21,516 bases of DNA from positions 1 through 21,516 of the IMG/VR virus record IMGVR_UViG_2718218128_000003. The stretch is one strand, 5' to 3'. A model generated the notes under the pieces. It did no database searches and was not told the origin of the DNA. It saw only the letters and a list, made by a program, of their open reading frames with translations. The stretch is from a virus. Taxonomy: Duplodnaviria; Heunggongvirae; Uroviricota; Caudoviricetes. The position numbers were made by a program, and so were the translations under genes. Below, piece after piece: positions 213-19,985 of the stretch. Each line of letters starts with the position of its first letter. The stretch's first letter is position 1.

Positions 213-797
213 TTACTCCCTGACAGGGTTCGTAGGCCACTCAATATCAGGTGCAGTTGATGTATCAACACGGTTCAGCAACACCCGATACTTTTTCCAG
301 GCTTCCAGCAATGAGGTTTCTTCCTCCGTTGCAATTTCCAGATCTGCAGCATCCTGAAGCGGCGCAATATGCTCACTGGCTGCCTGCATCAGGCTGTTTT
401 TTGTTTCTTCCGCCTCCCGGATCCGGAACAGTTTTTCTGCTTCCGTATCCTTCACCCAGGCTGTGCCGTTCCACTTCTGAAACTCCCCTTCCGGGGATAA
501 CCAGGTGACATTTTCCGGTAATGAGCCGAGTTCAGAAATAAATAACGCGTCGCCGGAAGCCACGTCATAAACCGTTTTACCCCGATGATCTTCAACGAGA
601 TGCCACGATGCCTCATCACTGTTGAAAACAGCCACGAAGCCAGCCGGAATATCTGGCGGTGCAATATAGGTACTGTTTGCTGGCAGACCTGTATGAGGCG
701 GAATATATGCGTCACCTTCACCAATAAATTCATTAGTTCCGGCCAGCAGATTATAAATTTTTATGGTCCGTGGTTGTTCACTCATTCTGAATGCCAT
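213..797 (-). CDS. tfaR: Tail fibre assembly protein (Tfa chaperone)
   Basis: 194-aa ORF ([24 protein letters not shown]...) matching the Rac/lambdoid Tfa family as recalled. Its ATG overlaps the upstream stop (TAATG). Confidence 0.85.
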
Positions 798-5282: not shown

Positions 5283-5678
5283 CTAACCTCGCATGTCAAA
5301 GCCAGATTTCTGAAAATCTCTGTAGACTTCCGGATTGTTGAAGGCCGGAAATTTGGCTTTATGAGCTGCGGACTTTATCGCTTCGCAATAGGCTTTATCA
5401 CCGTTACTGGTAGATATTTTTAACGCCGTGCCATCCTGAGAGAATTCCATATGCAACCTGCATTTTTTCCCTTTCCAGTTATGCGGCTCATCAAGTTTGG
5501 CATTAATTGCAGCTCTGATTCCCCGCGCTTGCGCCCCCCATTCATCCTGATCATCCCAGCGTCCTGAACTGCAACTACCTGTAGCAGTAGTTTTGTGGCA
5601 ATCTGAAGGGTGTAAAGGTGTGCATCCCGCAACAAAACCGACCCAAAAAGTCAACATAACGATTTTCTTTAATCCCAC
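5283..5678 (-). CDS. Lipoprotein with a diverged TolA C-terminal-domain-like region
   Basis: GTG start preceded by GAGGAG; signal peptide with lipobox (MGLKKIVMLTFWVGFVAGC). The C-terminus (GKKCRLHMEFSQDGTALKIS...CEAIKSAAHKAKFPAFNNPEVYRDF) keeps the Cys pair and spacing of TolA domain III. Confidence 0.6.
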   Translation of the reverse strand: MGLKKIVMLTFWVGFVAGCTPLHPSDCHKTTATGSCSSGRWDDQDEWGAQARGIRAAINAKLDEPHNWKGKKCRLHMEFSQDGTALKISTSNGDKAYCEAIKSAAHKAKFPAFNNPEVYRDFQKSGFDMRG

Positions 5679-5828
5679 TTCTTGCTCCTCAATCCATTAA
5701 AATCTCAGCAATAGTAGTTGTTACGTCCGCCACTGGCTCAGAGCTGACTATCCGCTAAATTTAGCTCAGTGCCGTAGCTGTGTCAGAACAAACCTAAGCC
5801 GAAACCGTTTATTACAAAACAATAAATA

Positions 5829-6257
5829 TCAGGGTTTAAAATCCAGCACCCCATTTTGAAATACTTTATATACTTCCGGCGAAGGGGGGGCAGGTATATC
5901 AGCATTCTTTATCGCATTCATCGCTTCACGACATAAATCGAGGTCTCCACTTTCTCTTTTAACCTCCAGTAGAAGGCCATTCGGGGCCATATGCATTCTC
6001 AGTGTACACTCTTTTCCTGAATACTTACTCGCATCCCCGAACTGTTTTTCGATGGCGCTCTTGATTTGATGGGCATACAGACGGATATCCTCACTAACAT
6101 CAGAAGTACGTTCAGATGAACTCACATACTGTGTCTCTATTGCTTTATCGGAGTAATATGATGTACGGTCATGATAATTTGTCGATACAGCATCAGTGCA
6201 CCCGATAATAATCCCACTAATAATCAACGTAAGAATTGATGCGCTACGAAAACCCAT
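5829..6257 (-). CDS. Lipoprotein with a TolA C-terminal-domain (domain III)-like region
   Basis: ATG preceded by GAGGA; lipobox (IISGIIIGC). The C-terminal ~85 aa (YAHQIKSAIEKQFGDASKYSGKECTLRMHMAPNGLLLEVK...PPSPEVYKVFQNGVLDFKP) aligns end to end with the E. coli TolA C-terminus as recalled. Confidence 0.7.
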   Translation of the reverse strand: MGFRSASILTLIISGIIIGCTDAVSTNYHDRTSYYSDKAIETQYVSSSERTSDVSEDIRLYAHQIKSAIEKQFGDASKYSGKECTLRMHMAPNGLLLEVKRESGDLDLCREAMNAIKNADIPAPPSPEVYKVFQNGVLDFKP

Positions 6258-7194
6258 TTTTCCTCACATATGTCATATAGTAAAGGATTATATATACCGT
6301 TGTTTTGGACGCTCAAACAGCGAATCAGATCAAATAAAACGCACATTTGTTAACATTTACACAAAGTCTGCGTGGGATATTCTGAAAGAATATCCATAAT
6401 GTGGAGAGAATCTATTGAAGTGCATGGTGCCGGGTGCCTCCCGGTGAACAAAATGTTCGTGATACCTGTCGGCGACAGAAAAGGTTAATGGTATCACCCC
6501 ACCGCACAGGGGGATTCACCATGCAGGAGTTTTCTTAGCAAACTCACTGCGCGCCCGGCAACTCCCAACCACATAAAATGCGGAGTTTGTGGTATTTATG
6601 CATATAACTCGCAGGAATTATCTTAAAAAACTGATGTCGATCCGGATTAAAAAGAAGCAGGTCATCATCAGATGACTGGAAAAAAGGAAAACAAAAAATA
6701 CTCATCATACAGTTTTGATTGCAGGGATGAGCCTGCTATGCACAATATGCAGAATATAAGCAAGATAAAAATATGCAGGCATATTATTTCGGATTTTGTT
6801 ATTAACACAACCTTTTTAATAATCATTTGGCATACAATAAACCAGCCCAAAAAGAACCGCCTAAACAGGCGGTTGGTCAATACAAAGGATGCTTCGTCTT
6901 TATTATAGTAATCTGAGGCGTCGGGTGTCTTGTATCAGACAACATATTGTCCCGCTAAACAGCGAATTACAAACCACCCTGCAATGATCTCTCATCTCAT
7001 TTTATATGAGTTGACGACATCAGGATAACGCATCATCAGCCCCTGCCAAGAAATATCAAAACTCCCGCCAGCAATGTGTTATCACAATATTGTAAAAAAA
7101 ACACAGCACCGAAACTATAACTGGTCTCTGTTATAATTTGGAGCAGAAAGACCAGTTGCCCAACTAGCAGCATTCTCCCCTGCTTTCCTGACGT

Positions 7195-7301: not shown

Positions 7302-7844
7302 TCAAGCCATTTTCTCAGCAAATGATTCACGCATGGGAATATATAGGGCATACTCAGCAACAGCTAACCAATTAGCAATCCGTTTTTCGCATGTGCTAAA
7401 ACACCACTCTGGGTGTGCATCATTTAGCAATTCAGCCATTTTGCGCTTAGTCATCCCCCGCCCTTCATAGCGTTGCCGGAGAATGCAAATCAATCCTGGA
7501 TGCTCTGCCAGCACCTCACTTATGACTCGATCAATACATAACGCCTCTGCATCAGTACAATGCGCCAGCCAGCTCTTTTGCTTGCCGTTGATCATCTCTC
7601 GCAAAAACGCTTCCAGCTCAGCTTTCTCTATTCCCGCTTTTTTCATTCTGCGCAGGGCTTCATTAATGGCTGTTTTCGTCAGTTTTTTGGATGCCAACAA
7701 CTGATTGAACATATTCCCTGACCTGCCACCGCCAATATACGACCAGCGCCCCCACATACGTAGTTTTCCCTGAATCCAGACACTTTCCAGCGTGGTGAGG
7801 CGAAGGTGTTCTCCGCTTTTTCCTGTATTCGTTGGGTAAATCAT
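7302..7844 (-). CDS. Putative late-gene antiterminator Q-family protein
   Basis: 180-aa ORF immediately upstream of the terminator and lysis cassette, start overlapping the upstream gene (ATGA). Has an RWG-W-like N-terminal motif and C-terminal Cys pairs. Family assignment rests on position and motifs only. Confidence 0.55.
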   Translation of the reverse strand: MIYPTNTGKSGEHLRLTTLESVWIQGKLRMWGRWSYIGGGRSGNMFNQLLASKKLTKTAINEALRRMKKAGIEKAELEAFLREMINGKQKSWLAHCTDAEALCIDRVISEVLAEHPGLICILRQRYEGRGMTKRKMAELLNDAHPEWCFSTCEKRIANWLAVAEYALYIPMRESFAEKMA

Positions 7845-8131
7845 AAATGACCTTTCTTTCTCCAGATTTCTTGTGTGCGAAAAACCCCTTCAGCATGCAT
7901 CAGGCGCAATTCTTCTTTGGTGTAATCGCTGGTTTTTACCCGCCCGTCGATTAGATCGTGGCATTAGCTACAGGCTATCGCCGCCTGCATATCGTGTGGT
8001 TTTGTCGCTGTTCCGCACGTCCCCGCCAGCCTGTAATGCGCCAGCACAGAGGTTTCGGGATTGTGATTGCAGTAGCCAGGGATTCTGATCTGGCACATCT
8101 GGCCTTTAGCCGCTTTACGTAAATTCACCAT
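7841..8131 (-). pseudogene. ybcO-like (DUF1364, putative nuclease) gene interrupted by an in-frame TAA at about 7964-7966
   Basis: A single frame of 291 nt (the size of the 96-aa YbcO family) reads MVNLRKAAKGQMCQIRIPGYCNHNPETSVLAHYRLAGTCGTATKPHDMQAAIACS-stop-CHDLIDGRVKTSDYTKEELRLMHAEGVFRTQEIWRKKGHL. Both ends are translationally coupled to neighbours. The ORF track lists no ORF of 61 aa or more in this frame, consistent with the interruption. Confidence 0.55.
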
Positions 8132-8730: not shown

Positions 8731-9193
8731 TTCTCAATCTCTCGATGGCGCAGTGCAGCAGATGCCAGTTGTTCAGGCTGACGTATAAAGTATAAATAAA
8801 CTGGTTCCAGTGTAAAGCCCCCACCTTAATGGAATAAAAACCAAACAACAGATTGCTGGGATACAAACAACGCTTATTATTAAAAGCGGTTAAACAAATT
8901 AAATTTTAATGTTATGCAAATTTGTCAGATCACCATAATATCTCATTTGAAAACCGCTGAAATAACAACCCTATCAGGGTTAATCATATTAAGGTGAGTA
9001 AATATGGAAAACAACAAATCTGTACATTACGTTCCTTTTTTATCTGTAATACTTTTTGTTTTATGCTGTGCGTGGGCATTATTTTTATAAAAATATTTAC
9101 AGATGAAGTAAACCCGCCAATCAGGTTAACTGTGGCTGCGTTGAGGATGCATAATACATCAGAGGTTGCGGGGATTTCTCCCCGCTGGTCCTC

Positions 9194-9349
9194 TTACTCC
9201 CCAAGTTCGTAAGCTGTGAAGACAGCGACCTCCGTCTGGTCGGTTCGGATTCGTACCTCGCAGAGGTCTTTCCTCGTTACCAGTACCGTCACTATAACGG
9301 TTAAACAGATGACGATCAGGGTGATTAACATCGCCTTTTGCTGCTTCAT
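9194..9349 (-). CDS. hok: Hok/Gef-family type I toxin (HokD/RelF-like)
   Basis: MKQQKAMLITLIVICLTVIVTVLVTRKDLCEVRIRTDQTEVAVFTAYELGE, 51 aa, near-identical to HokD as recalled. An in-frame upstream ATG at 9406 gives the 70-aa track ORF. Confidence 0.8.
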   Translation of the reverse strand: MKQQKAMLITLIVICLTVIVTVLVTRKDLCEVRIRTDQTEVAVFTAYELGE

Positions 9350-9520
9350 AGCCCGCTTCTTCTTGCCTTTCAGCACGTAAGAGACTAACCTACGTTTGTA
9401 AGGCATAGATTGGGCCCCAGATTAATGTTAAGCCTCTTGCCGGATGCGTAATATCAACTGGGACTTTTTCTATCTGCCTTTGGTTTTCATGCCCAAGGCA
9501 GATAGCCTCAAGTCCCCGCA
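9350..9520 (-). promoter_or_regulatory. hok mRNA 5' leader with mok-like upstream start and expected Sok antisense target
   Basis: The leader contains CTTGAGGCTATCTGCC and GGCAAGAAGAAGCGGGCT-ATG, which resemble the R1 hok tac and translation-initiation regions as recalled. The Sok gene itself was not delimited. Confidence 0.4.
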
Positions 9521-9559
9521 GCCATACTATTTAACCCCCTTTACTTCGCCAATATGAAA

Positions 9560-9649
9560 TCAATCAGAAAGGCGATTCATAAGAACAATAGCAAGACAAT
9601 AAATTGCCACCACAGCCGCAATAGCCAACGCACACTTGAGAACCAGCAC
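9560..9649 (-). CDS. Candidate 29-aa hydrophobic peptide (V/MLVLKCALAIAAVVAIYCLAIVLMNRLSD)
   Basis: GTG start 5 nt after a perfect AGGAGG; single predicted TM helix; no family recognised. Confidence 0.25.
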   Translation of the reverse strand: MLVLKCALAIAAVVAIYCLAIVLMNRLSD

Positions 9650-9923
9650 GATAACCTCCTGTATTGGACGTGCACCTGCCCTGATAAATATGAGGCTGTC
9701 TCGTCAGTGATTCAATACAACTATTGGGTATAGTTTCTGTGATTTTGTTCTGTAGAAATGGAATACAACAACCAGTCACTACCAGCACTTCTTTAAATAC
9801 GCCAAGTCCGACGGAAGCCAACATCTAGTCTGCTTTGAACGAGGAGCTAACTTTGGTGTATATAGAAACATAATCACTACAGGTAGTTCCGAAAAAATTT
9901 CTCTATCGTGATACTTGCTGGTT

Positions 9924-10973
9924 TTATTTTAATCTCTGTAATTTTTTACGCAGAGCATTAACTCGTCTCTGAACCCCTATTTTTGGATTAAAGCTCAAAG
10001 CTTTTTCATAGGCATCAAGAGCATCACTAAAGTTACCAAGTAAATCATTTGCTTCACCTTTGATGCGAAATGCGGCTGCAGCCCAGTCAGTTCGGTCTTT
10101 CGCTCCTTCATTAAGAGCCATTTCAATTGCTTTCAATGCTTTTTGAGCATTCTTCTCACTGGGATGTTCTCTTAAAAGCGCTCTCGCGGCCTCTACTTTA
10201 AGGTTGAAATTTCCTTTATATAGACAAGCATCTTTATACGCTTCCACGTCAATGGGAATACCGATGGCAGTGTATCTGAAGTATCCAATATTTTTGCATT
10301 TCACTTTCAGCGATCTTAGCTCCCCATTTTCATCGAGATCGAAGAAATAACTATCAGCCCATCCATACTCAGGTTTAATGGAAAATATTGTTGTTTTTGA
10401 CCACAGATTTATTACCTCAAGGATATTTCCATCTTTACCGGGCGCTGCGGCTGTCTGAACCGATGCGTATTTACCACAATGAGAAATTCCGATATTATAG
10501 ATATTTGCTTCATAATGACGTCTAAACTTTTCATTTCCTTCAACATCAATAGCAATCAAATCAGCTTGCAGCGCAGAACCAAATCCAGCGTCATGAACAA
10601 TATAATCACCTGTGTCAGCGACAGCAGCATTAAATGGTCGGGCAATAGTTCTGAGCTTATGAAGGATACGAAAAGTTGGTTTATTAACTAAAACAACTGT
10701 TCCAAATCCACTTTCCCGGTGCCCTCCCCTTCCATTGCCATCAAAGTCACTACAGCCTACAACCCAATGTTTGTTTGCAGACAGATACGCCTGTCCAAAA
10801 AAATAAGGAGAATCAATAGTAAGCCAATCGTTTTCGATTGATATATTTCCGTTTTGTTTCTTGAGTTTAGGAGTTATGTTAGCTGTTAACTCATGCAAAC
10901 TTGAAGGCGTCATTGTTTTTGCAGAAGTTATCCTGGAGGTAAGCAAATTGAATAGTTGTGAAATAAATCCCAT
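9924..10973 (-). CDS. Uncharacterised 349-aa protein: unassigned N-terminal domain with a C-terminal TPR-like helical repeat
   Basis: Long ORF with AGGAG upstream and AT-rich codon usage. The C-terminus (AQKALKAIEMALNEGAKDRTDWAAAAFRIKGEANDLLGNFSDALDAYEKALSFNP) is TPR-like. The N-terminus contains GCSDFDGNGRGGH and HDAGFG motifs that I cannot place. Confidence 0.8.
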   Translation of the reverse strand: MGFISQLFNLLTSRITSAKTMTPSSLHELTANITPKLKKQNGNISIENDWLTIDSPYFFGQAYLSANKHWVVGCSDFDGNGRGGHRESGFGTVVLVNKPTFRILHKLRTIARPFNAAVADTGDYIVHDAGFGSALQADLIAIDVEGNEKFRRHYEANIYNIGISHCGKYASVQTAAAPGKDGNILEVINLWSKTTIFSIKPEYGWADSYFFDLDENGELRSLKVKCKNIGYFRYTAIGIPIDVEAYKDACLYKGNFNLKVEAARALLREHPSEKNAQKALKAIEMALNEGAKDRTDWAAAAFRIKGEANDLLGNFSDALDAYEKALSFNPKIGVQRRVNALRKKLQRLK

Positions 10974-11299
10974 TTATAAATACTCCTGAGTAGCTTTTTT
11001 AAAACGTTGGCACTTATATGGCCCTCCGTGGACAAAGTGGATCCAAAAATGTCCATTCTATCTAAGGCCAGACGAACGTTCTGGTTGAAAATCTGAGTAT
11101 CGCTTCGTCGCTAATTCGCCGTTAGACATATTTAACCACTTTTAGCAAAAATATGCACATTTTTCATCCAAGAAAACAAAAAATCGCCATCCGCAACAAT
11201 CTGCTTGTTTTCGTTAAATTTTGACAATCACGCCTTTTTCTTCTCGGCAGAGCTGAAAAATGCTAAAGTCGTATCTGGGTGGATTAATCGTATACATGG

Positions 11300-11376
11300 G
11301 AAAAGTAGATACGGAAGAAAGGGGAAAAGTAAAAGGTAGATGCAAAAGAAAGGTCCGCTTTGAGCGAGGAGCGGAC
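11300..11376 (-). terminator. Possible terminator after the GmrSD-like gene (GTCCGC...GCGGAC hairpin followed by a T-rich tract)
   Basis: Hairpin at 11353-11376 with a long loop, then CTTTCTTTTGCATCTACCTTTTACTTTTCC on the minus strand. Confidence 0.3.
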
Positions 11377-11500
11377 TTGTTAATATCGAGCCTATCTCGT
11401 AATGATATAATTGAAGACATGTTGTAGGCCTAGCAGGATATCCATGACTCATCAAACTGTCAGTAAAACATCCCACTTACGCCTATGTTTTATTGATAGA

Positions 11501-13183
11501 TTAACCAACTTTCCATACATTTACTGCTTGTTCCGACATCCATTTTTGAAAATCATTGACAGCCTCTAAATTCCATTCAGGATACTGTGTAATCTTAGCC
11601 GCTAATTTATACTTTGATTTTCCATATTCATTTTTCTTCACTTCAAATGAAGCTCTTTTTAGATTATCTTTATCCATCAAAACCATATTTCCTAACCTAT
11701 CCTTTACGTCATTAACCCCCTCCCCAAACGAATTGCACCACCCTTTCTCTGGGTTAAATGGACAAATATGTTCGAGTGTAACTTTTTCATGATCGCAATT
11801 ATTACCAAGATATTGTTCAATTTCAGCCAAGAGAAATCTAATTTTTTTGGCTGTTTGTCTACTTGGCATTCGATGAAATTCAAAAGCATTAAAGAACACG
11901 TTATCATCAGGATATAACCTCTTAAACTCCTCCCCATTTTTCACATTGCTAGCTCTCTTGTATTCCTTATTGGAGATCTTAATCGCAATTTGATTATACA
12001 TGCTTTCTTGTTCACTTGGTGATAAATGACAAATAACATTGTATCTAATTGATAAAATATATAAATAACGAGTCAGGCTGACGAACTCATCTGGATTGAA
12101 TTGATTAAAAGCTGATAGCAATACTGTTAATGGCTGTCTAATATTAAAGAGTCTAATGCCGTTCAGATAATGAATGGCCTTCTTGTATTTAGTATCTTGC
12201 TCTGCCCACCATGAATCATTCGGGTTAATCAATGATGCATAAATAGGTGCGGAATTTATCAGTGATCTTAAATAATCGTATGCTTCTTTAGGGGTTGTAA
12301 TTACTTTTCTCATTGAAGTGTATAAATTATTTTTTGTGACCATTTTTCTATGAGAATTATGATGATACCTAATGTAATCAGAAACATTGCTTTCTCCCAA
12401 CTGATCGATAATCTCCGACCATTGCTCATCTAACTCATCTAATTCCTCATCTCCGATTTTCTCATCCTTAGTTACTATCGAAAACAAATAGTTTTTTAAG
12501 AGATCTGGCGTGGATAACTGGACTCCTCTCGCATTTAAAGTTTCAAATACTTTGTATGCATTTAAATCATCTTGAACAACTATTTTTGTAAAAACCATAC
12601 TCGAAGAAAAATCGGCAATAAACTGTGCGATCTCAGCGCCGGTATTACCGAACTCCTTCTTTTGGAAAAAATCAAAGCATTTCTTGAGTAGCTTATTTGT
12701 AGATGTAGTTCCACGAGTATTAGGAGCTTCTAAGTTTGAACAGATGCTTTGAAAATATCTTTTATTATTTCTATTTAAATCTAGCTTGCTAACCACCTTT
12801 AATGAAACGAAGTTTTTGTTACCCACAAATGTCTTTGTTATTGCATCAAGTCGCTCTGTGTTTTGTTCAACCTCCTCTCCTTTATCTATCAAGTTTTTAA
12901 TGGCTTTCATGGCTGCTAGAACTATAATCGACAAGGTTACTAATCGTTGTTGACCATCAATGACCTCATGTTGATACTGTTCTTTTTGTTGAAGAACTAT
13001 ATATCCCATATAATGAAAACCTTCATCATCAAGTGCTGTAACATCACTCCAAAGGTCCTCCCATTGTTCTACATCCCAAGCATAGTCTCGCTGGAATCTA
13101 GGAACAATGTACTTATTTGACCCTCCAATTAATTCATTGAAGTTCTCATTTTTTGGTTCCATTAACATAAACTGTTTGGCCAT
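11501..13183 (-). CDS. GmrSD-family DUF262-DUF1524 fusion protein (candidate type IV modification-dependent restriction nuclease)
   Basis: 560 aa. N-terminal DUF262/ParB-like motifs (IVPRFQRDYAWD, IDGQQRLVTL) and a C-terminal His-Me-finger-like DUF1524 motif (TLEHICPFNPE...LGNMVLMDKDNL). AT-rich. Confidence 0.8.
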   Translation of the reverse strand: MAKQFMLMEPKNENFNELIGGSNKYIVPRFQRDYAWDVEQWEDLWSDVTALDDEGFHYMGYIVLQQKEQYQHEVIDGQQRLVTLSIIVLAAMKAIKNLIDKGEEVEQNTERLDAITKTFVGNKNFVSLKVVSKLDLNRNNKRYFQSICSNLEAPNTRGTTSTNKLLKKCFDFFQKKEFGNTGAEIAQFIADFSSSMVFTKIVVQDDLNAYKVFETLNARGVQLSTPDLLKNYLFSIVTKDEKIGDEELDELDEQWSEIIDQLGESNVSDYIRYHHNSHRKMVTKNNLYTSMRKVITTPKEAYDYLRSLINSAPIYASLINPNDSWWAEQDTKYKKAIHYLNGIRLFNIRQPLTVLLSAFNQFNPDEFVSLTRYLYILSIRYNVICHLSPSEQESMYNQIAIKISNKEYKRASNVKNGEEFKRLYPDDNVFFNAFEFHRMPSRQTAKKIRFLLAEIEQYLGNNCDHEKVTLEHICPFNPEKGWCNSFGEGVNDVKDRLGNMVLMDKDNLKRASFEVKKNEYGKSKYKLAAKITQYPEWNLEAVNDFQKWMSEQAVNVWKVG

Positions 13184-13473
13184 ATAATTGGAATCCTCTA
13201 CTTTTTTAAAATTAATTTCATGCCTAAATTAAATGGGTTCTTGCATGATATATACTGCTAATAATTATCTTGACACTTCAGGGCCACTCTTTACCACCTT
13301 TACCGATAAAATAATACAGCATTTGTTTAAGTAATGTCCGCAGCTGGCACAAAGCAGGCAACCACACTAGTTCTACCCTGTACCATAAAAATGTCAATTT
13401 ACATATGAACCAATGCTATTTAAACTAAAAATACCTATAAATGCAGCATGATTCACTGATAAAATGCCAATAT

Positions 13474-13851
13474 TCACTGCATAACTTCACTCTTCAGGCA
13501 CTCGCGACAGATTATGTTCAGACGCCTGTCGTAACGGCGTATTTCTCCGTCTGGTAATGACCAGATAAGGTCAGGATCAACCACAACCGGTTTCTTCACC
13601 TTTGTCCTTGATAGTTTTTTGCGGGCGTTTTGCCAGTCTTTACGCGCCTGCTCAGACGGGAATAATCCGTAGCCTGAATTGTAAACATCACCACTGGCGA
13701 CTAGTTCTCTGGCGAGAGTGCTTATGTAATACCTTGATGCACCGGTTTTAGCCTCCAGAGCCCGTAACGTCTCGCGACCGCTCAGAGGTACAAGTTCAAC
13801 AACCTGTCCTTTAATTTTTTCTCGCTCTTCTGGTGTAAATACTTTTGCCAT
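13474..13851 (-). CDS. Hypothetical 125-aa protein with a helix-turn-helix-like segment
   Basis: ATG preceded by GGAGG (the track ORF starts 5 codons earlier at TTG). Contains SGRETLRALEAKTGASRYYISTLAREL. Family not recognised. Confidence 0.6.
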   Translation of the reverse strand: MAKVFTPEEREKIKGQVVELVPLSGRETLRALEAKTGASRYYISTLARELVASGDVYNSGYGLFPSEQARKDWQNARKKLSRTKVKKPVVVDPDLIWSLPDGEIRRYDRRLNIICRECLKSEVMQ

Positions 13852-14059
13852 AGGTGCCTCCGGCAATCACTTTTCCGATGCAACATGGCGGGAAGAATCA
13901 GTAATCTGTCGTACAATATCCCTGTGCTTGTTCAACTCACGCAGCGCGGCGCAGACACGCTCCCACTTCTGGACATGATTTTTCGCCCGACGCAGTTCGC
14001 GGTTTGCCATATGCAGTGATGGTAAAACCAGGTCACCCGGCGTTAAGGGGAGAGATAAG

Positions 14060-14194
14060 ATGGTGCATTACGAAGTAGTTCAGTATTTGATGGATTGTTG
14101 CGGTATCACTTACAACCAGGCTGTGCAGGCTTTACGCAGCAACGACTGGGATCTCTGGCAGGCAGAAGTCGCTATACGTAGCAACAAGATGTGA
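14060..14194 (+). CDS. Small 44-aa prophage protein (YdaG/YdfB-like position)
   Basis: MVHYEVVQYLMDCCGITYNQAVQALRSNDWDLWQAEVAIRSNKM with AGGGGAGAG 5-6 nt upstream. Too short for the ORF track. Confidence 0.45.
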   Translation: MVHYEVVQYLMDCCGITYNQAVQALRSNDWDLWQAEVAIRSNKM

Positions 14195-14204
14195 GATTCG
14201 CAAA

Positions 14205-14360
14205 ATGCAAAAAATCGACCTCGGCAACAACGAATCCCTGGTGTGCGGCGTGTTCCCCAACCAGGATGGAACGTTCACTGCCATGACGTATACCAAAAGC
14301 AAAACATTTAAAACCGAAACTGGTGCGCGCCGATGGTTGGAGAAGCACACAGTAAGCTAA
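14205..14360 (+). CDS. Small 51-aa prophage protein, YdaF/YdfA-like (DUF1391)
   Basis: MQKIDLGNNESLVCGVFPNQDGTFTAMTYTKSKTFKTETGARRWLEKHTVS; resembles Rac YdaF as recalled; convergent with sieB. Confidence 0.5.
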   Translation: MQKIDLGNNESLVCGVFPNQDGTFTAMTYTKSKTFKTETGARRWLEKHTVS

Positions 14361-19588: not shown

Positions 19589-19783
19589 ATGAGATATGAC
19601 AATGTTAAACCATGTCCATTTTGTGGTTGTCCATCAGTAACGGTGAAAGCCATTTCAGGATATTACCGAGCGAAGTGTAACGGATGCGAATCCCGAACCG
19701 GTTATGGTGGAAGTGAAAAAGAAGCACTCGAAAGATGGAATAAACGAACCACTGGAAATAATAATGGAGGTATTCATGTATAA
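19589..19783 (+). CDS. ralR: Restriction alleviation protein Lar/RalR
   Basis: 64 aa, MRYDNVKPCPFCGCPSVTVKAISGYYRAKCNGCESRTGYGG... Confidence 0.85.
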   Translation: MRYDNVKPCPFCGCPSVTVKAISGYYRAKCNGCESRTGYGGSEKEALERWNKRTTGNNNGGIHV

Positions 19784-19985
19784 AATTACCGCCACTATTG
19801 AAAAGGAAGGTGGCACTCCTACTAACTGGACAAGATATTCAAAATCTAAACTAACGAAATCAGAATGCGAAAAAATGCTCTCAGGTAAAAAAGAAGCAGG
19901 CGTTTCCAGAGAGCAGAAAGTAAAACTGATAAATTTTAATTGCGAGAAACTTCAGTCCTCGAGAATTGCATTGTATTCAAATTAA
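19776..19985 (+). CDS. ydaC: YdaC (DUF1187) small protein
   Basis: 69 aa, MYKITATIEKEGGTPTNWTRYSK..., with GGAGG upstream; overlaps the ralR end by 8 nt. Confidence 0.8.
   Translation: MYKITATIEKEGGTPTNWTRYSKSKLTKSECEKMLSGKKEAGVSREQKVKLINFNCEKLQSSRIALYSN

Follow-up and report, generated by a model that had tools for sequence, protein, structure and literature searches.

Bacterial STAND/Avs proteins use tetratricopeptide repeat (TPR) or WD40-type scaffolds to sense phage proteins, are encoded in defense islands and prophages and carry interchangeable nuclease effectors. Superinfection exclusion is exerted by small integral membrane proteins such as P22 SieA and T4 Imm. The protein described here, a 349-amino acid (aa) product that we call the propeller-TPR protein, is encoded in the Rac prophage of Escherichia coli. 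The window, meaning the whole stretch of DNA analyzed (21,516 nucleotides; IMG/VR record IMGVR_UViG_2718218128_000003, positions 1 to 21,516), is this prophage and is 100% identical to that of strain S3. We propose, as a reading with an even chance of being right, that the propeller-TPR protein is a non-catalytic module for protein recognition, tethered to the membrane and carried as accessory cargo, which acts in conflict with phages or other mobile elements. Its closest experimental precedent, though a different protein, is the single-gene defense protein obtained by functional selection in E. coli in which a β-propeller is joined to an Mrr nuclease (Vassallo et al. 2022, PMC9519451). That protein is a validated example of a propeller in a defense protein borne on a prophage or mobile genetic element and coupled to a DNA-cleavage domain, but it has seven blades and an N-terminal Mrr nuclease and lacks TPRs and a membrane anchor.

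Comparison with the other described systems gave both likenesses and differences. Parallel to the STAND/Avs proteins, the Serratia copy of the propeller-TPR family adjoins a giant NACHT-like gene, and rare members are fused to nucleases. Unlike them, the propeller-TPR protein has no STAND or other nucleoside triphosphatase (NTPase) domain, is just 349 aa long and has a predicted membrane anchor; most members of the family carry no effector domain and no PADLOC Avs model is matched. No family in PADLOC-DB v2, whose models presumably include the PD-T4, PD-T7 and PD-Lambda systems, matched the protein at E ≤ 1. With SieA, Imm and SieB, the last encoded on the same Rac prophage, it would share the character of a prophage-encoded, non-enzymatic, inner-membrane-associated protector of the lysogen. 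Those proteins, however, are small integral membrane proteins with neither propeller nor TPR and with no homology to the propeller-TPR protein, for which exclusion is here hypothesized.

The fold was assigned from a confident AlphaFold2 model, run on a 23-sequence alignment (mean predicted local distance difference test (pLDDT) 86.7, predicted template modeling score 0.78), together with three fold searches. The gene and the parts of its product are as follows.

9924..10973, minus strand: complete open reading frame (ORF) of the propeller-TPR protein, 349 aa plus stop codon, from an ATG
10987-10983, minus strand: Shine-Dalgarno sequence AGGAG, 9 nt 5' of the ATG, as read from the sequence
10938..10973, minus strand: conserved amphipathic helix, aa 1-12, MGFISQLFNLLT, proposed to be a MinD-like membrane-targeting sequence (MTS)
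10845..10937, minus strand: disordered linker, aa 13-43, with variable, gapped columns in the family alignment
10254..10844, minus strand: all-β domain, aa 44-240, an N-terminal hairpin and four 4-stranded blades
9930..10247, minus strand: six helices forming three TPR-like hairpins, aa 243-348
9990-10091, minus strand: canonical TPR, aa 295-328
9939..9989, minus strand: basic C-terminal motif, aa 329-345, [ND]-P-K-[IV]-G-V-[KQ]-[RK]-[RK]-x3-L-[RK]-K-[KR]-L

The initial annotation, made from the sequence of this stretch, had found no recognizable family in the N-terminal ~250 aa, in agreement with our scans: Pfam, NCBIfam, PHROGs and PADLOC contained no model for this part, and none of the curated propeller repeat families (WD40, PD40, PQQ, NHL and FG-GAP) was matched in Pfam at E ≤ 1. 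The fold search that it had recommended for this domain returned a partial β-propeller and no enzyme fold. Residues 44-240 are modeled as a PD40/WD40-like partial propeller of four radially arranged, 4-stranded antiparallel blades, with turns of the form [S/D]-x-x-G between strands A and B; conserved turn residues (S65; D120/G122; S164/G167; D214/G217) give the repeat signature. The propeller matches of lowest root-mean-square deviation, which include Ika4 and 6r60, are partial (3.4 Å over 151 residues for a four-blade fragment of Ika4; 3.3 Å over 163 residues for a fragment with five blades), while ~195 residues, nearly the whole β domain, aligned to seven-bladed Atg21 at 4.5 Å. These matches suggest that the modeled propeller is an open four-blade arc, closure of which may need a partner or a second copy, as by dimerization.

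The C-terminal TPR reported by the initial annotation is real though weak by sequence. The single sequence scored 25.7 bits against Pfam TPR_1, under the cutoff of 27.8, whereas the family profile matched consensus TPR proteins at E = 1.6e-11, and the model has the TPR fold. In the basic motif that ends the protein, K331 (90%), G333 (98%), L341 (89%) and K343 (79%) are kept among 161 sequences. Residues 1-39 are disordered in the model (pLDDT <50) save for a short helix at aa 4-12, and no P-loop or NTPase domain (STAND, NACHT or NB-ARC) was detected in the Pfam scan or the model. A propeller followed by an α-solenoid recalls the COPI α and β' subunits and IFT-A, a likeness that is architectural only (TM-scores around 0.25), as those proteins are eukaryotic, about ten times larger and built on complete seven-bladed propellers. 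The folds themselves are ordinary; their combination (MinD-like anchor, four-blade partial propeller, three TPRs and basic tail, lacking an NTPase and in most members an effector) is in no curated library.

The initial annotation had further pointed to conserved-looking Cys/His motifs (VVGCSDFDGNGRGGH, HDAGFG and ISHCGKY) and had suggested a TPR-guided, peptidase-like abortive-infection effector with a Cys-His catalytic site. The Cys and His residues do occur in these three motifs of the E. coli protein, but none of its 12 Cys and His residues is conserved in the 161-member alignment: C74 is kept in 32% of members (Trp in 52%), C166 in 41% (Asp or Asn in the others), H85 in 28%, H127 in 19% and H165 in 2%. 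The model, moreover, has no papain-like, caspase-like or similar fold. Conservation and fold together rule out the Cys-His site, and the peptidase reading, a wrong lead now removed, retains next to no probability. Because neither conserved catalytic residues nor an enzyme fold was found, we regard the protein as a non-catalytic scaffold. Polar residues of the inter-strand loops are conserved as well (D76, R112-P113, D128, N157, Q173-T174, D181, W205 and D242).

One of these loops resembles a calcium-binding site in the E. coli copy, where aa 76-87 (10713-10748) read D-F-D-G-N-G-R-G-G-H-R-E, similar to the 12-residue EF-hand loop, which in calmodulin is DADGNGTIDFPE. The model of the propeller is of low confidence only here, with pLDDT falling below 50 at residues 81-83. 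The residues of this region that are kept across the family are D76, G84, R86, G89 and G91, and the EF-hand assignment was rejected on the liganding positions, which are not conserved (position 80 is variable and E87 is kept in 37%).

That the ORF is a real gene, with its start where it was placed, is well documented. The annotated coding sequence in E. coli S3 is 100% identical to it (RefSeq WP_063084527, 'tetratricopeptide repeat protein'), the AGGAG falls inside the sole upstream stretch conserved with the Pectobacterium copy, and homologs from other genera begin with the same conserved residues, MGFISKL, which fixes the start codon. The description of a long, well-initiated ORF in the initial annotation thus stands.

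These first residues form the candidate membrane anchor. A strict motif, M-[GS]-[LF]-[LIF]-x-x-[LI]-[FL]-(G), begins 88 of 168 full-length relatives, and looser versions such as MWPFKKK and MKWLFGLKKKK begin many more. The MTS of E. coli MinD is KGFLKRLFGG (PMC5471200). Near-copies of it were found among the N termini of the family (MNWLKRLFGNGG, MSWLKRLFGN and MGFIKRLLG), together with the similar MGFISQLFNLL. The hydrophobic moment of the helix in the E. coli protein (0.45) equals that of the MinD MTS, whereas shuffles of its residues averaged 0.23 and reached 0.45 in 2% of cases; the segment is thus amphipathic, short and terminal, and its hydrophobic residues are patterned as in the MinD MTS. 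Compared to the targeting helices of MinD and FtsA, to which it is closely similar in sequence, the motif is N-terminal instead of C-terminal and sits on an unrelated protein, and its membrane binding is putative. Neither a signal peptide nor a transmembrane (TM) segment was found in the E. coli protein (highest 19-residue Kyte-Doolittle mean, 0.53). A eukaryote-type N-myristoylation motif (MGxxxS/T) was considered and rejected, as the Ser of MGFIS is wrongly placed.

In 13 of the 168 relatives, a true hydrophobic TM helix followed by Lys/Arg takes the place of the motif. Under the positive-inside rule, Lys/Arg after a TM helix leaves the following module in the cytoplasm, and the propeller-TPR module of these relatives is therefore placed there. 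By analogy of position and sequence, a flexible linker of ~30 residues probably holds the E. coli protein to the inner membrane, on its cytoplasmic side.

The family is a patchily distributed accessory cargo of prophages, islands and plasmids. A word-indexed search returned 44 full-length homologs, in Pectobacterium (81% identity), Serratia, Morganella, Burkholderiales, Achromobacter and Aeromonas, and an exhaustive profile search returned 292 representatives (50% identity clusters) at E ≤ 1e-30, nearly all of 300-350 aa and with the same architecture. Seven plasmid records matched the family. Of 5426 complete E. coli genomes, 31 carry the gene, with an identity of ≥99% in every case. The Pectobacterium homolog lies at the edge of an AlpA/DUF6387/H-NS island, that of Burkholderia in a type VI secretion system/H-NS island and the Serratia homolog has a NACHT-like gene (2138 aa) on one side and an Mrr_cat/OLD-TOPRIM gene on the other. 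The Pandoraea homolog is in a prophage, adjoining a SocA/Panacea gene; another is in the prophage of a contig (P0002), and the copy on a Pantoea megaplasmid is in a prophage remnant. No paper was found that mentions WP_063084527 or links a Rac prophage tetratricopeptide protein to defense, and the protein was not found in the portion of the DefensePredictor supplements available as text.

A survey of gene neighborhoods, which the initial annotation had called for, revealed defense genes concentrated near the family. The two nearest long ORFs on each side were taken from 39 non-redundant loci, and these 144 ORFs were compared with PADLOC at E ≤ 1e-10. They matched 151 PADLOC model families. As a distance control, the same procedure was applied to 100 ORFs situated 6.5-10 kb from the homolog in these loci, which matched five. 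The near-ORF matches include RmrA-type XRE-M78 proteins (four ORFs), MkoA/MkoC (three), SAVED-endonuclease effectors of the cyclic oligonucleotide-based antiphage signaling system (CBASS; three) and PDC-S05 (two), and Pfam assigned HipA (three), SAVED (three), RhuM (two) and ResIII (two) to the same 144 ORFs. Individual neighbors include MkoC (L019, E = 5e-257), a Cap4-type SAVED nuclease 46 bp from the homolog (L006, E = 5e-215), a defense dGTPase 60 bp away (L008, E = 2e-68), an SNF2 helicase of the DrmD/BrxH-like type (L024) and an LmuB/PtuA-like ATPase (L030). Given 151 families near and five at a distance, the association is local and recurs with at least ten defense types; the family is associated with defense islands.

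An alphaproteobacterial sub-clade (L029, L032, L033, L035 and L036) keeps a convergent gene pair directly downstream of the homolog. One gene encodes a PIN-like protein (~163 aa) and the other an XRE-peptidase M78 protein (~351 aa), the latter with matches to the PADLOC RmrA and CapP models.

The neighborhood data bear on whether the protein is instead a cellular scaffold of the envelope, division or signaling that has nothing to do with mobile-element conflict and hitch-hikes in variable regions. The generic nature of propeller and TPR folds, the homologs found amid housekeeping genes and the name 'YfgM family protein' on some copies would fit such a protein. A gene present in so few E. coli genomes, with a foreign base composition in the E. 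coli copy (below), and a local enrichment of defense genes that withstands the distance control do not, and we consider this explanation unlikely. The YfgM name itself looks unfounded. Identical copies of the gene (RefSeq records H6-H8) are named 'YfgM family protein' in some recent annotations by the Prokaryotic Genome Annotation Pipeline and 'tetratricopeptide repeat protein' in others, yet no YfgM model in NCBIfam release 20 or Pfam was matched at E ≤ 1 and the protein has no hydrophobic N-terminal TM segment. The three-part architecture can replace both the generic label and the mistaken one.

Direct links to nucleases and helicases were found in a minority of relatives. In P0122 and P0179, the module is followed in a continuous ORF by VRR-NUC with an intact D…E-V-K motif, and in P0139 by an RNase T-type DEDD exonuclease and a BRCT domain, also in a continuous ORF; in P0122, two TM helices replace the amphipathic helix. 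Other extended members include P0148, fused to a Cys-rich, zinc-ribbon-like tail, and P0135, P0111, P0176 and P0189, the extensions of which have no Pfam match.

Linkage between separate genes was observed as well. In Oxalobacteraceae, the homolog is co-oriented with MkoC and 18-24 bp downstream of it (L019, 6695-10909; L015, 30-1733); in Rhodopseudomonas (L023, 4818-10867), it lies 5 bp downstream of a superfamily 1 (SF1) helicase with an MTES_1575 restriction endonuclease, and in Brevundimonas (L027, 6558-10855), it overlaps a ResIII/DEAD helicase by 13 bp. In these lineages, the homolog appears to be co-transcribed with an MkoC-like or helicase-nuclease gene, which may represent an undescribed two-gene variant of Mokosh MkoC-like or helicase-nuclease systems. 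The fusions and gene linkages would be compatible with a sensor or adaptor role for nucleic acid-targeting enzymes. In the window, the candidate partner is the gene upstream.

11501..13183, minus strand: GmrSD-type type IV restriction enzyme (DUF262 + DUF1524; GmrSD_N E = 2e-37, GmrSD_C E = 2e-17)
10974..11500, minus strand: AT-rich intergenic spacer of 527 bp, conserved with Pectobacterium only in its last ~35 bp
9194-9517, minus strand: complete hok/sok type I toxin-antitoxin locus, directly downstream of the propeller-TPR gene

The neighbors named in the initial annotation, a hok toxin and a type IV restriction-like gene, were both recognized by their models (Pfam HOK_GEF at E = 1e-20, with Rfam sok at 9344-9517, 93 bits, for the former), and the restriction enzyme matches PADLOC HEC-06 at E = 4e-221. 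Its report of an AT-rich composition unlike that of the flanks was also borne out. The propeller-TPR ORF has 39.0% GC (28% at third codon positions, GC3) and the GmrSD gene 34.2%, against 47-50% GC and GC3 of 45-52% in the flanking prophage genes DUF1367, DUF1133 and DUF977. As for hok/sok, its GC content (48.6%) is that of the prophage backbone rather than of the AT-rich island, and hok is at the same position in other strains with different cargo.

The protein could thus be an accessory sensor, adaptor or regulator of a neighboring defense enzyme (GmrSD here, MkoC or a helicase-nuclease elsewhere), recruiting it to the membrane or gating it. This would account for the shared AT-rich island, for the presence of GmrSD in precisely those 31 E. 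coli genomes, out of 5426, that carry the TPR gene, for the co-oriented homologs directly downstream of large helicase and nuclease genes and for the VRR-NUC and DEDD fusions. The co-occurrence in E. coli, however, carries no independent information: as the 31 genomes are the same and identity is ≥99%, the two genes are one clonal block. Within it, IS1 has inserted into the TPR gene of PSJ-16 and into GmrSD of W409, and LR-45 has lost 71% of GmrSD with the TPR gene intact, so each gene can be lost independently of the other. The 527-bp spacer and a weak terminator-like hairpin (11367-11355, downstream of GmrSD) part the two genes, and GmrSD enzymes, PADLOC HEC-06 included, are described as single-gene systems. 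No GmrSD was found beside the homologs in Pectobacterium, the 81%-identical copy, or in Pandoraea, Morganella, Aeromonas, Serratia and Burkholderia; as an obligate partner it was rejected, being a neighbor only in the clonal E. coli block. GmrSD was co-acquired in the same AT-rich island and is not a conserved partner of the family. Because partners vary by lineage and are often absent, an obligate two-gene system is excluded, and dependence on a neighboring enzyme in the looser sense is, in our view, rather unlikely.

The prophage setting raises another alternative. Gene order in S3 and the window (intR, xisR, ralR, recT, recE, racC, kilR, sieB … trkG … tfaR) is that of Rac, and this Rac prophage is defective. 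DUF977, a gene found in 2100 genomes, served as the anchor for comparing it with further Rac-like and lambdoid prophages. Upstream of DUF977, relatives (L055-L058 among those compared) have a full DUF1627 together with replication genes and the immunity genes HTH/HTH/YdaT. At 13867-14360 of the window, this immunity/replication block (two helix-turn-helix regulators, YdaT, ydaU/ydaV-like genes and most of DUF1627) is gone, leaving a C-terminal DUF1627 remnant that adjoins ydaF and a small phage gene, and no repressor or replication genes are visible in the window prophage.

Between DUF977 and hok/DUF1367, the nin region, cargo differs from strain to strain. It includes a Dcm methyltransferase accompanied by an O-methyltransferase and an ATPase; an S-adenosylmethionine-dependent methyltransferase with Ea22, HNH and DUF551 genes; small hypothetical genes; and DUF4406. 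The island of GmrSD and the TPR gene therefore sits in a variable cargo slot. The initial annotation had it replacing the immunity module; the immunity block is indeed missing but was lost in a separate event, and the island fills the nin-region slot. The same slot is used in intact-looking Morganella prophages, in the order DnaB-Dam-Lar-x-[gene]-DUF1367-Rus-like-Q.

The setting would suit a lambdoid early gene that serves the phage, a nin-region moron whose product binds a host protein at the membrane for takeover, division inhibition or counter-defense: here as in Morganella the gene lies in the nin region and shares the orientation of the delayed-early genes, its fold is a pure protein-binding scaffold and Rac already holds host-directed genes such as kilR. 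Against this stand the outcome of a tblastn search of 50,697 sequenced phage genome records, which returned no homolog, the many homologs in non-phage chromosomal defense islands, of which some seem to share an operon with Mokosh or helicase genes, and the nuclease-fused and TM-anchored variants, which better fit a cellular immune module. We judge a phage-serving role distinctly unlikely.

Taken with the architecture, these results suggest that the family is a credible candidate for defense, with function as a proposal. In the mechanism we favor, the short N-terminal MinD-like amphipathic helix would anchor the protein at the cytoplasmic face of the inner membrane, and the ~30-residue flexible linker would hold the four-blade propeller, the three TPR hairpins and the conserved basic C-terminal helix. 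The conserved propeller loops and the TPR groove would bind a protein of the incoming element, or a host factor needed by it, at the membrane. The solitary form would then act like a superinfection-exclusion protein, blocking or sequestering what it binds, or would pass the target on to a nuclease or helicase; a few relatives have a nuclease of their own attached to the module (VRR-NUC, or DEDD exonuclease with BRCT). The gene moves as single-gene cargo of prophages, islands and plasmids and lands in defense islands. Membrane binding, the target and any phage-resistance phenotype are what we infer. Of the defense or abortive-infection effector suggested by the initial annotation, the defense role is retained as a candidate function, whereas no catalytic effector site or enzyme fold was found.

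Several points weigh against a recognition module acting in conflict with mobile elements. The phage-resistance role is a prediction, and the sequence alone served to deduce membrane binding. As an effector domain is lacking in the solitary form, its manner of stopping a phage is a guess, and no validated defense model in PADLOC is matched. No neighbor is conserved across the family, and hence no system logic can be read from the operon. The Aeromonas homolog lies among housekeeping genes with no visible mobile element, and that of another contig (P0005) adjoins housekeeping genes on the sole visible side, again with no visible mobile element. The nin-region site, co-oriented with early genes, also fits a phage gene for lytic growth. 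Finally, the neighborhood loci are partly non-independent (L029/32/33/35/36 and L015/17/19 each share an island), and the counts are raw ones, uncorrected for phylogeny.

A broader formulation is that the family constitutes a new class of NTPase-independent, membrane-tethered phage-sensing module, active as a single-gene defense or exclusion protein and repeatedly recruited as a sensor or adaptor for nucleases and helicases. Recruitment would proceed by fusion or operon linkage to VRR-NUC, DEDD exonuclease, Mokosh MkoC, SF1/SF2 helicase-nucleases and perhaps GmrSD, and the module would place these enzymes at the site of phage DNA entry. We put this forward tentatively and at well under an even chance. 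If the family is defensive, it would add to bacterial immunity a compact sensor architecture with no NTPase and usually no effector, and would give a way into the question of how inner-membrane recognition can be coupled to different nucleases. Thousands of such candidate families exist, and the propeller-TPR family is one more candidate with a predicted role.

Expression signals of the gene appear to be supplied locally. Promoter-like sites across 9000-13600 were at chance level (16 counted against 15.4 expected), so no promoter of its own was discerned. Upstream of the ATG, the Pectobacterium and E. coli copies are homologous over no more than ~35 bp. What is exchanged is therefore the ORF together with its ribosome-binding site, with transcription signals taken from the local context. 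A conserved own promoter was rejected on these two grounds, and the standalone transcription unit described by the initial annotation is putative.

Other features of the prophage were recorded in passing. The DUF1364 (Rus-like) gene at 7841-8131 (minus strand), between DUF1367 and the Q-like gene DUF1133, has an internal stop and is annotated as a pseudogene in the identical RefSeq record, another sign of prophage decay. At 5283-6257 (minus strand), between the Q-like gene and the lysis cassette, two TolA-like genes are annotated, as 'cell envelope integrity protein TolA' and as a TolA C-terminal-domain protein; they could interfere with Tol-dependent entry of colicins or filamentous phages. 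The RalR/RalA type I toxin-antitoxin pair is intact at 19589-19960 (Rfam RalA at 19782-19960, 225 bits; ralR annotated in the identical record). Further Rfam matches at gathering level inside the prophage are the IS009 RNA at 256-454 (minus strand, 226 bits) and the small RNA STnc100 at 6368-6554 (minus strand, 87 bits).

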